Below are positions 1 through 2,267 of a stretch of DNA of 64,000 nucleotides, in pieces. Every line of letters starts with the position of its first letter. Position 1 is the first letter of the stretch. Origin of the DNA: Escherichia coli (lineage in GTDB: Bacteria > Pseudomonadota > Gammaproteobacteria > Enterobacterales > Enterobacteriaceae). Location of the stretch: the NCBI RefSeq assembly GCF_001677475.2, contig NZ_CP012497.1; one strand, 5' to 3'. Position numbers and translations under genes: made by a program. The notes below the pieces were generated by a model, which ran no database searches, was not told where the DNA came from, and was given only the letters and a program-made list of their open reading frames with translations.

Positions 1-772
1 CTATCATGTAGGGTTCGTCTGCATGGCGACGCTGCCATTCCGCGACAAAATCTTCGTAGGCTTCTGACATAGGTCTGCCATTCGCCTGGCGATACTGCGC
101 CAGAAATTCAGGTAGCCAGCTAATTTCCTCCGGTTTTATTTCGTCGCGTTTTCCTGGTGCCAGTAACAGCAGCCGTTCTGCGGCGTTCTGTGACTGGTTG
201 TACTTCAGCACCCACTGATAAAGTGGGTCACGACTGATGGTGCGATTAGCACCACGTTTTGCATTGGCGTTAACTGCGGCCTGTTGCAGGCGTTCCGGTA
301 GTTCACCTTTACGGGCTTTTTCGACAAGAAAGTTAATGGCTTTCAGTCGCCCGAGATCACCGTCTCTTTCCAGCCTCAGCACTTCCACCACCAGCGCAGA
401 TCTTGCTTCAGATACCCGGCGCTGGTTTTCGGTCAACGCGTTCAGGCGTTCTTCCATCAGTTGTGGAGAACCGCGATATGCTTCGATTGCCTGGACTGCA
501 TCAGGATTACGAGCCTTCCTGGTAACAACCTTCACTTCAGAAACATTGTTCTCTGTAGCCACCAGCTGTTCCACATAGCGTTCACGCAGTGCCCTTTGAG
601 TTACCTCTGGCAGGCAATCGATGTGGTATTCAATGGCTTTTGTGCCTTCACGTCGGCGGCTAACGTCATTGCGCCCATGGGCAAAACGCTGTAACGCCTG
701 ACGGATACCTTTTGCAGTGACTGGCATTCCTGGTACGCCGAGCAAGTCGTTTGCGGTAACGTACAACTGCAT
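1..772 (-). CDS. Mu-like transposase A, 5' part (gene continues past window start)
   Basis: Minus-strand ORF with ATG at 770-772 (MQLYVTANDLLGVPGMPVTAKG...), open to the window edge with no stop; N-terminus resembles the MuA/Mu-repressor winged-helix DNA-binding domain; starts 1 nt after the ner stop. Confidence 0.65.
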   Translation of the reverse strand, partial: MQLYVTANDLLGVPGMPVTAKGIRQALQRFAHGRNDVSRRREGTKAIEYHIDCLPEVTQRALRERYVEQLVATENNVSEVKVVTRKARNPDAVQAIEAYRGSPQLMEERLNALTENQRRVSEARSALVVEVLRLERDGDLGRLKAINFLVEKARKGELPERLQQAAVNANAKRGANRTISRDPLYQWVLKYNQSQNAAERLLLLAPGKRDEIKPEEISWLPEFLAQYRQANGRPMSEAYEDFVAEWQRRHADEPYMI

Positions 773-773
773 A

Positions 774-1025
774 TCACGACGCCTTCCTGATAAATCCATC
801 GTTACGATACCGGCTGGGCCAGATGATTTCTGGCGGTACACCTATAGCGTCAGAAATTACGCGTTCGTATTTTTTGTTCGGTGTACGAACTACCGCTTTC
901 AGTGAATCCTGAGCATAACCAGCATGGAGTGAAAGCTCCCGGAAGGAAGACCACCCATTATCTTTGAGCGCCAGCTGAATCTTTAGCGAAGGCCAATCGC
1001 GGTCGCGATCTTCTCTTTGTCTCAT
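774..1025 (-). CDS. ner: Ner-like DNA-binding regulator (Ner/Nlp family)
   Basis: 83 aa; C-terminal ...IGVPPEIIWPSRY matches the Ner/Nlp signature; immediately upstream of the transposase. Confidence 0.75.
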   Translation of the reverse strand: MRQREDRDRDWPSLKIQLALKDNGWSSFRELSLHAGYAQDSLKAVVRTPNKKYERVISDAIGVPPEIIWPSRYRNDGFIRKAS

Positions 1026-1216
1026 CTTTCCTTTACCCTACAAAGTTACCCGCGCGGATATCCGGTCGGATATCCGTATGGATAAAATCGTAGATCACAA
1101 AAAGTACCATTACAAGGTATTTTTTGTATTTTGTTTGTATTTTTGAATTTTCCTTTCTATTCAATTAGATAGATGGAAAAGAACCTTTATGCAGAAAAAT
1201 ACCTAGAGGTACTTTT
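1026..1216. promoter_or_regulatory. Divergent early control region between ner and repressor
   Basis: 190-bp AT-rich intergenic region with repeated TTTTGTATT-like motifs between divergent genes; the position matches the Mu c/ner operator-promoter region. Confidence 0.35.
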
Positions 1217-1732
1217 ATGGAGCAAGCAAAAGAACCTATCGTAGAGCGCATGGCATATCTTATTAGACGGTATCCATCAAGAAGTGCTGCAGCCAGAGCC
1301 TGGGGAATAAATATCAATACGTTACAAAGCTATTTTAAAAAGGGAAACACACCAGAACCTCGAGAAAGCATATTGGTACGCATTGCAGAAAGTGAAGGTG
1401 TTAGTCTTGAATGGTTAAAAACAGGCAACGGAAACCCACCAAAAATACAAGAATCACAAAGCAGTTTAAGTCAAGGCGATCAGCTAACTGAGATGCTCTC
1501 GTTTCTTACTAGTGAAGAACGAGAGGCTCTTACCAGCATGTTCGCAAGGAAAGGCGTTGAAACGGTACTACGCTTATTGGACAAAGATACTCAAGAACTG
1601 CTGCAACTAGAGGGTCGTAAACGCCTGGCTGCATTGATGTTGGTTGATATGTCCGACGAGCAAGTCAGAGAGATTTTGGAAGAAATTGAAGCAAGTATTC
1701 TCTCACACAGCGTAAAAGCAAAGGCAGGTTGA
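1217..1732 (+). CDS. Putative prophage repressor (HTH)
   Basis: 171 aa, divergent from ner; N-terminal HTH-like segment (AAARAWGININTLQSYFKKGNTP) and C-terminal coiled-coil-like region. Confidence 0.5.
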   Translation: MEQAKEPIVERMAYLIRRYPSRSAAARAWGININTLQSYFKKGNTPEPRESILVRIAESEGVSLEWLKTGNGNPPKIQESQSSLSQGDQLTEMLSFLTSEEREALTSMFARKGVETVLRLLDKDTQELLQLEGRKRLAALMLVDMSDEQVREILEEIEASILSHSVKAKAG

Positions 1733-1832
1733 CTTAATTGACCTGCTTTTGGAGCTTCTTTAAAATTCGCTTTAAAAGGAGATGCGGGCATTTTTGAAGG
1801 GGCTTAAAAGGCTTGAAATAACACGGCGCGCC

Positions 1833-1964
1833 TATCTTGAATGTTTTATCGATATTGACGTATTGAGCATTTTTAACCCGTTTTATCTTGAATATCGGTA
1901 GTTTCTAACCTATTGATTCCAATCTGTTCCCGTCTTTTTTAATCTCTTCCCGGTTATCTTGAAT
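1833..1964. repeat. Three direct copies of TATCTTGAAT (1833-1842, 1884-1893, 1955-1964), putative transposase end-binding sites
   Basis: Exact 10-mer repeated three times, each within a (C)CG(N)TTATCTTGAAT context, directly downstream of the repressor gene; resembles the arrangement of Mu attL L1-L3 sites. Confidence 0.4.
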
Positions 1965-2267
1965 AATTTACTTGGTCATATATACCCGCTGAATGTGTCA
2001 TATCTGGCTAATTTACGTGATATGGATCTGGATAATGGGGAAGTGCCACCTGAAATCATTGGGTTACTTTCTGACTATCTGGAAGTGTTAATCGCGATAC
2101 CTAACACTGATCGCCTGCGAAGAATATCTATCGCGGGGAAACTCGATGCCAGCAATTTATCCGACGAGAACACGCTGTATCAGCGGAAGCTGGATCTGGA
2201 AGAGAAAATGAGCGCAACAAGGGCAATTATCCCGGGTATTGTTCTTTTCTCATCCATGTTGAAGTGA
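1959..2267 (+). CDS. Hypothetical small protein (pmgC position by synteny); annotated start lies inside the putative Mu-like end
   Basis: ORF track; a true start may be the internal Met near 2020. Confidence 0.3.

Follow-up and report, generated by a model that had tools for sequence, protein, structure and literature searches.

Mu-like phages nested in Stx prophages and transposable elements carried by P1 are already known. Among the Mu-like phages, vB_YpM_5 of the genus Muvirus was isolated as a phage that infects Yersinia pestis (PMC10434027). For P1, the gene pmgC was described as essential, its knockouts yielding no infectious virions (PMC9024508). Here, a stretch of 64,000 nucleotides (nt) from an Escherichia coli assembly (contig NZ_CP012497.1; referred to below as the window) was analyzed, in which a Mu-like sequence adjoins P1-like genes. 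Positions 1-1980 of the window are very probably the left (immunity/early) end of a Mu-like myovirus prophage. It is inserted in pmgC of an IncY plasmid prophage of the P1 type, with a TATA duplicated on its two sides. The element is Mu-like in the broad sense and belongs to the E. coli Sp18/Yersinia vB_YpM_5 lineage of Mu-like phages. The event is very probably a simple transposition of the whole element into pmgC, and its mechanism is routine.

In a megablast analysis of positions 1-4000, the P1 homology was found to begin exactly at position 1981, with identities of 97.5-99.4%. All P1-type matches, 20 from phages (P1, P7, SJ46, RCS47 and others) and 507 from plasmids, start at this base. 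Position 1981 corresponds to nt 46296 of P1 (NC_005856), which is located 280 nt inside pmgC (nt 281 of 567), and the product of 1981-2267 matches the PmgC-like family PHROG 1851 at profile positions 93-183 of 183. The set of essential virion genes is not intact, as pmgC is split at codon 95 of 188. In the P1 annotation, pmgC is the first gene after the late promoter LPsit, and no promoter is annotated between LPsit and LPs in this record. The following genes tub, pmgB and sit are now parted from LPsit by the whole Mu-like element.

The second junction was identified in other public assemblies. From a 4-bp duplication and the right-end sequence of the element, a fusion protein of 110 amino acids (aa), PmgC(1-95)+KARKIIQDRYGILSR, was predicted and found as an exact match (WP_244585986.1). 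It is encoded on nine contigs, on which mom and com adjoin the 5' half of pmgC. With a slash marking the point of joining, this far junction reads ...GCGGTATA/TAAAGCGCGC... (mom side), where the element side begins with TAAAGCG; it is also written ...GAGCGGTATA/TAAAGCGCGCAAAATTATTCAAGATAG and ...CATCGAGCGGTATA/TAAAGCGCGCAAAATTATTCAAGATAG. The near junction in the window is GGTCATA/TATACCCG (also written ...GGTCATA/TATACCCGCTG). Both junctions were found in one assembly, GCA_018683295.1 (near, L016; far, L046). They are flanked by the duplicated TATA and together rebuild an intact pmgC. The DNA on the far side is again P1 DNA, comprising repL, kilA, ant, icd and the 5' part of pmgC.

An earlier note, made from the letters of the window, had proposed, as the first of two alternatives, the insertion of a transposable phage into a P1-like element, and this proposal is borne out by the collinear plasmid backbone described below and by both junctions with their duplicated TATA. 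It had also recommended an alignment of the junction to intact P1, which revealed the split of pmgC. Its expectation of P1-like tail genes directly beyond the boundary held in part: the homology does start at 1981, but this base lies within pmgC and is not the edge of the tail genes. The location of the junction where P1 would carry sim/c4/icd/ant had to be corrected, since it lies in pmgC, and that region is intact on the far side of the element in the matching assemblies. Likewise, in place of the 5-bp duplication with TG...CA ends that was to be looked for, a 4-bp duplication (TATA) and TA...TA termini were found.

The duplication length was the same in other members of the lineage, namely in VL40 (TTCA), RM9088 (CTTA), STEC346 (ATTC) and Sp18 of E. 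coli Sakai (TAAA). All five insertions for which both junctions were read, including that in P1, show 4-bp direct repeats, and a Mu-type reading with 5 bp fails in each of them. As read from these repeats, the element ends are shown to join the target DNA with a 4-bp stagger. A 5-bp duplication at the pmgC site (TATAC) was considered and rejected. It predicts a PmgC cut to 95 aa and a stop, and two such 95-aa variants were found only on contigs that simply end there. The 4-bp model was adopted because this prediction failed and because of the flanks of VL40 and RM9088. Two further candidates were rejected. The VL40 prophage had been regarded as rearranged, with a missing 5-bp repeat, and turned out to be a simple insertion with the 4-bp repeat TTCA. 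For Sp18, ends of the type TG...CA with a CCAGG duplication had been assumed; the end alignment and the site spacing put the termini 10 and 11 nt further out, with TAAA as duplication.

The left terminus of the element could be placed exactly at base 1980 (...TTACTTGGTCATA), as sequence 100% identical over 1-1980 abuts four different flanks, that is P1 pmgC and three chromosomal sites (flanks TTCAT, GTTAA and TTTGC). A related element in E. coli FDAARGOS_943 stops at the equivalent of base 1980, where it adjoins narI. The right terminus ...TTTTGCGCGCTTTA was fixed by seven different flanks, the right end of VL40 being common to seven other contigs. From these four and seven independent flanks, the ends were determined to be 5'-TATGACC... 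and ...GCGCGCTTTA-3' (right end also written ...GCGCTTTA). They read 5'-TA...TA-3', as most termini of the lineage do, and not 5'-TG...CA-3'. The element was thus found at unrelated sites, its left end (identical over 1,980 bp) at four and its right end at seven, with short duplications.

The three exact copies of TATCTTGAAT at the left end fall within 150 bp of the terminus. In the whole 64-kb window, four copies of this motif were found versus 0.22 expected, and a number of four was reached in none of 100 shuffles. The core of the repeat is TTCAAGAT, which starts 18, 89 and 140 nt from the left terminus. At the right end, which was read in the far-junction contigs and in VL40, the same core TTCAAGAT is present in inverted orientation and starts 18, 40 and 75 nt from the terminus. 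Each end therefore carries three copies, in agreement with the expectation of the earlier note that the repeats should recur at the other end, and the spacing nearest the terminus is shared, as the L1-like and R1 cores both start 18 nt from their termini. By analogy with Mu, the three repeats per end may be regarded as equivalents of L1-L3 and R1-R3 and as candidate transposase sites.

The coding sequences in this part of the window are listed in Table 1. The visible part of the transposase matches PHROG 310 ("transposase", E-value 4.7e-48), and its residues 10-98 correspond to the Pfam domain HTH_Tnp_Mu_1 (PF02316, E-value 2.6e-7). The stop codon of the Ner-like open reading frame (ORF) ends 1 nt ahead of the transposase ATG. 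This ORF matches the transcriptional repressor family PHROG 769 (E-value 2.5e-23), and the Pfam domain HTH_35 is annotated on the identical 83-aa protein in a public index. The immunity repressor matches PHROG 3037 ("transcriptional repressor", E-value 8.4e-53), and exactly the same 171-aa protein is encoded on at least 22 public contigs. At this end of the element, the repressor gene is followed by a divergent ner-type regulator and the transposase gene, in the order of Mu-like phages. All components named in the earlier note, the MuA-like N-terminus, the Ner-like regulator 1 nt upstream, the divergent repressor and the three repeats, are present, and the layout matches the Mu arrangement c-ner-A-attL in gene order and repeats, with the element end at 1980.

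Table 1. Positions of the features at the Mu-like/P1-like boundary and of the related deletion endpoints. Window coordinates unless a locus is named.
Feature	Position	Strand	Basis or remark
Mu-type transposase gene A, 5' part (257 codons)	772->1	minus	ATG at 772; cut by window start
ner-like early regulator gene (83 aa)	774..1025	minus	ORF list and PHROG 769
Divergent c/ner control region (190-bp spacer)	1026..1216		candidate operators from repeat search
Three 14-bp palindromes overlapping one another, of the form TATCCGnnCGGATA (candidate operators)	1047-1084		
Candidate operators: AAAAAGTACC/GGTAYTTTT palindromes	1097-1127 and 1195-1216		
Immunity repressor gene (171 aa)	1217..1732	plus, divergent from ner-A	PHROG 3037
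Terminator-like hairpin (14 pairs, then T-rich tail)	1719..1751	plus	consensus scan and inverted repeat; overlaps repressor stop codon
Left-end (attL-type) region of the Mu-like element	1733..1980		terminus is base 1980 (...GGTCATA)
Left-end repeat 3 (L3-like candidate transposase-binding site), TATCTTGAAT	1833-1842	plus	exact match
Left-end repeat 2 (L2-like candidate site), TATCTTGAAT	1884-1893	plus	exact match
Left-end repeat 1 (L1-like candidate site, nearest terminus), TATCTTGAAT	1955-1964	plus	exact match
Target-site duplication TATA, near copy	1981..1984		intact site GCGG-TATA-CCCG in CP099272.1 and P1
3' fragment of pmgC, from within codon 94 to stop	1981..2267	plus	P1 annotation and alignment
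tub, pmgB and sit, the next P1 late-operon genes	2278..7295	plus	97.5-99.4% identity to annotated P1-type records
Mu-free deletion derivatives	L042/L043 junction ~8282/5844; L044 ~5676		intact-site equivalent of window 1981-1988

The leftward extension recommended in the earlier note was possible by means of the identical copies outside the window. They encode a transposase of 698 aa with HTH_Tnp_Mu_1, Mu-transpos_C (E-value 1e-17) and a weak rve core (E-value 0.005), which also showed weak similarity to PDB entries of retroviral integrase cores (E-value 1e-4) and to the MuA I-alpha domain (PDB 1tns). Judged from these matches, a predicted RNase H-fold (DDE-type) core and the Mu C-terminal domain can be assigned to the transposase of the identical copies. 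A MuB-type AAA+ ATPase of 317 aa (PF09077, Phage-MuB_C) follows A in all contigs extending far enough. The identical copies further carry kil, gam, gemA, mor, lysis genes, a Mu-type terminase, portal, F, protease, the gpT head protein and the tail sheath. These Mu-type late genes were found in contig L024, which continues a copy identical over 1-1980, and com and mom at the far junction; all of them are located outside the window. The VL40 relative from E. coli is complete with 34.6 kb, and the full-length relatives of the element have sizes of 34.6 and 38.8 kb.

The Mu-like prophages of E. coli were found to be mosaic, as an identical 202-aa middle-region protein and the same late genes are combined with at least four repressor/transposase alleles (L019-L024). 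These alleles comprise canonical MuA-type transposases (662-666 aa, Pfam DDE_2) as well as the 694-698-aa type. Within the repressor of the window, residues 82-160 match the C-terminal part of the Mu-c-type family PHROG 7148, and the N-terminus matches other helix-turn-helix repressor families. The N-terminal part of PHROG 7148 is matched by the transposase N-terminus (window 580-772). The repressor is thus chimeric with respect to Mu c, and, unlike in Mu, repressor and transposase may differ in their DNA-binding specificity.

If the element works like Mu, the 171-aa repressor would bind to palindromes of the c/ner spacer as candidate operators and thereby silence the early promoter of ner, A and B. 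Upon derepression, Ner, A and B would be made, and the transposase would bind the three ATTCAAGATA-type sites at each end, pair the ends and cleave at the 3' TA termini. The ends are joined to the target DNA with the 4-bp stagger read from the duplications. By this insertion, pmgC is split, and tub-pmgB-sit and the later genes are severed from LPsit. The terminator-like hairpin after the repressor gene would insulate the downstream P1 genes from repressor transcription, and therefore read-through into these genes is unlikely.

A backbone of 97.7 kb together with an element of 35-39 kb is likely too large for the terminally redundant P1 headful. Because pmgC is split, the late genes are cut off from LPsit and the composite likely exceeds the headful, the P1-like phage is probably defective and persists as a plasmid without infectious P1 virions. 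The Mu-like phage, in turn, would gain a plasmid-borne copy.

Several points weigh against this interpretation. The window holds one end and 1,980 bp of the element, so that the full length of the plasmid copy is not visible there, and the far junction is known from other public assemblies and not from the window's own record. In the draft assemblies, the contigs cover 3.6-5.1 kb of the element when read from its left end and 1.3 kb when read from its right end before they stop, and no single contig spans the element; these breaks probably reflect an element middle shared with another resident Mu-like prophage. A closed P1::Mu plasmid was not found in PLSDB, INPHARED or the complete RefSeq genomes of E. 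coli, and an exact search of IMG/VR with the near junction gave no match. The operators and transposase sites are assigned by analogy, the defective phenotype is drawn from the P1 knockouts, and the headful argument is based on the general knowledge of P1. In the literature, to which access was partial, neither a P1-like plasmid carrying a Mu-like phage nor the 4-bp duplication was found to be described.

With only 1,980 bp visible and no contig spanning the plasmid copy, the Mu-like sequence could also be a remnant, i.e., a truncated early end as in FDAARGOS_943, and not a complete inducible prophage. Decay of this kind does occur among the relatives. In FDAARGOS_943, the relative is cut after gam by the insertion sequence (IS) ISEc60, and the relatives in RM9088 and AP025747.1 have IS insertions or truncations. 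However, both true termini are joined to the pmgC halves, and the 4-bp duplication is clean, as is typical of a transposition of the whole element. The contigs are undisrupted for 5.1 kb inward from the left and for 1.3 kb (mom, com) from the right, and chromosomal copies with 100% identity to this copy extend into the late genes. One source lists a contig of 136,480 bp for the fusion protein, a size fitting the backbone plus a full element; the contig itself could not be read. A remnant is therefore considered unlikely.

The closest relatives of the window among the complete genomes, FDAARGOS_943 and RM9088, are decayed. In FDAARGOS_943, the remnant in narI has a length of about 7.4 kb (NZ_CP065615.1, 1211839-1219188). 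The RM9088 prophage (NZ_CP042298.1) is located between nrfA and nrfB. Its mom carries ISEc12, in which an IS66 is nested, and a further IS66-type element is found in its early region. For the right end, the FDAARGOS_943 remnant was uninformative, and along contig DAQBUZ010000009.1 the right end was not reached, as the contig stops earlier.

The shared junction in the carriers could further be due to repeated, independent insertions at a preferred pmgC site instead of a single event. The sequence of the site, AGCGGTATACCCGCT, is nearly palindromic, and its TATA centre is flexible. In other P1-like backbones, two deletions free of Mu end 2 nt away from it, and eight metagenome contigs stop 3-4 nt past the duplicated TATA. 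On the other hand, the carrier contigs share 100% identity with the window along 11.7 kb of the adjoining P1 DNA (11,732 bp in four independent assemblies), and orientation and duplication are the same in all carriers. This identity fits one insertion followed by the spread of a single plasmid lineage, and recurrent insertion is regarded as very unlikely as the source of the shared junction.

The two deletion derivatives are independent of each other, and their backbones are unlike that of the P1::Mu lineage. Their left endpoint is ...GCGGTA, 2 nt from the insertion point. The deletion partners are darB (29.6 kb lost) and hdf (16 kb lost), corresponding to window positions 34063 and 17745, each with a 4-nt microhomology (GGTA). 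The eight metagenome contigs (Logan/ENA; L034-L041) carry the 5' half of pmgC and stop at ...GGTATACC(C), with an identical last base in seven cases, which suggests an alternative sequence diverging there in those samples. A search with the C-terminal half of PmgC for other fusions at the site returned too few clusters to be informative. The near-palindrome could be a fragile or preferred site, or its appearance could be due to search bias. It is put forward only tentatively that the E. coli/Yersinia branch runs a variant transposition chemistry, with non-CA 3' termini and a 4-bp stagger, and that at the same time AGCGGTATACCCGCT is a recurrent point of breakage or insertion, where deletions and transposable phages turn P1-like phage-plasmids into non-lytic plasmids; this joint claim is possible, but rather doubtful.

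As its second alternative, the earlier note had considered a P1-like segment lying beside a Mu-like prophage in a chromosome. All other copies of the element found are indeed chromosomal. Nevertheless, positions 1981-64000 are collinear with the intact, circular IncY P1-like plasmid CP099272.1 (15755-78625) over 62 kb, with 97-98% identity apart from a few cargo blocks. The records of P1 and P7 match the window at 97.6-98.1%, and the gene order is that of a P1-like plasmid prophage (Punavirus/IncY). By collinearity, the repA/parAB module lies outside the window (CP099272.1 1-3428). In the unmatched stretches found so far, an IS21-family element and a cargo block with an autotransporter were recognized, and chromosomal genes were not identified. 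Since the far side of the element again consists of P1 DNA and the junctions reconstitute pmgC, a chromosomal neighbourhood is highly improbable.

That the junction is an assembly chimera joined through a repeat can practically be dismissed: although Mu-like elements are multi-copy and break draft assemblies, and the window starts inside the element, the identical junction was found in at least six assemblies (NCBI and Logan; six among the matches listed) that are independent of each other, the junction-derived protein predicted before the look-up exists exactly, and the 4-bp duplication agrees with the other four insertions of the lineage.

In the remaining part of the plasmid backbone, a number of differences from CP099272.1 were observed. 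The IS21-family element (22993-25402; istA 23086-24585, istB 24582-25337) interrupts a ddrB homologue. Its two flanks overlap by 6 bp in CP099272.1 (36976-36981, BLAST coordinates), which is consistent with a target duplication. A cargo block at 41007-45470, which is absent from CP099272.1, is flanked by homologues of lxc/ulx and mat and takes the position of res/mod in P1. It encodes, both on the minus strand, an AIDA-I-type autotransporter adhesin of 1084 aa (41605-44859) and a small regulator of the LuxR/RcsB type (41156-41500). An extra module (50784-52490) adjoins the c1 homologue. Its 383-aa ORF (50817-51968, minus strand) has a stretch 85% identical to ant of CP099272.1, and its 187-aa ORF (51929-52492, minus strand) has an Icd-like domain, so that the module looks like a second ant/icd-type set. 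The invertible (C) segment of the tail fibre genes (11792-14689 and 15486-16107) is in opposite orientation compared to CP099272.1 and 87% identical; therefore, the orientation and/or the fibre alleles differ between the two plasmids.

The locus represents a natural case of one temperate phage knocking out another, in a plasmid lineage present in at least six public assemblies. It illustrates one way in which phage-plasmids can become confined to life as a plasmid, and in which a plasmid can become the vehicle of a transposable phage. For the Sp18/vB_YpM_5 branch, the exact ends, the predicted layout of the binding sites and the length of the duplication of 4 bp are now given. Prophage searches that assume TG...CA ends and a 5-bp duplication would miss or misplace this branch. 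If the variant chemistry holds true, the branch would lend itself to natural comparisons of what determines stagger and end recognition in Mu-type transpososomes.

In comparison with Mu (Muvirus), the gene order at one end is the same (repressor, then divergent ner, followed by A and B), and the transposase N-terminus contains a Mu DNA-binding domain. The three repeats per end are spread on the left and clustered on the right, as in Mu (L1/L2-L3 and R1-R2-R3), and the identical copies share gam, gemA, mor, com/mom and the Mu-type portal, protease, gpT and sheath. However, the transposase is distant from MuA: Mu is absent from a sample of 30 of the 243 tblastn matches, in which the matches ranking after the top few are of the D3112 type with about 31% identity, and the Pfam domains DDE_2 and HTH_Tnp_Mu_2 were not matched by the 698-aa protein. 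The closest phage transposases among the matches listed were those of Yersinia phage vB_YpM_5 (82% aa identity), Mannheimia phage 3927AP2 (44%) and the Pseudomonas D3112-type phages (31%). Moreover, the termini are TA...TA versus TG...CA in Mu, the duplication has 4 bp versus 5 bp, the N-terminus of the repressor is not of the Mu c type, and the repeat core is TTCAAGAT.

The Mu-like prophage Sp18 of E. coli O157:H7 Sakai, which is located in sorM, has a transposase 76% identical to that of the element and likewise a 4-bp duplication (TAAA). The end layout is the same, with cores starting 18, 113 and 165 nt from the left and 18, 40 and 75 nt from the right terminus (...GCGCTATA). Sp18 differs in the repeat core (TTTGATAC), in the repressor, in its left terminus (TG, not TA) and in its chromosomal location, and a megablast search gave no match of Sp18 to window 1-1980.

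The termini of vB_YpM_5, TATGA... and ...TTTTGCGCGCTTTA (also written ...GCGCGCTTTA), closely match those of the element. As vB_YpM_5 is an isolated phage with non-CA ends, such ends belong to a working phage. Unlike the element, it has the repeat core TTTGATAC, a different immunity region and an invertible G segment with hin. The "circular" record of this phage (MT374853.1; L053 1230-1316) contains about 80-90 nt between the termini that are part of neither end and probably represent host flanks of Mu-type virion DNA that were collapsed.

The same nesting of a transposable phage within another temperate phage was found in the Stx-converting prophages LC727895.1 and LC727881.1, with about 69% nucleotide identity in the early region. 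There, the host is a chromosomal lambdoid prophage and the guest is another Mu-like element. P1 itself (NC_005856) carries IS1 and IS5, and together with the IS21-family element in ddrB of the window this indicates that P1-type plasmid prophages acquire transposable elements. The IS insertions in P1 differ in that they comprise 0.8-1.2 kb in non-essential regions, whereas here a whole phage (about 35-39 kb in the relatives) is inserted in an essential gene.

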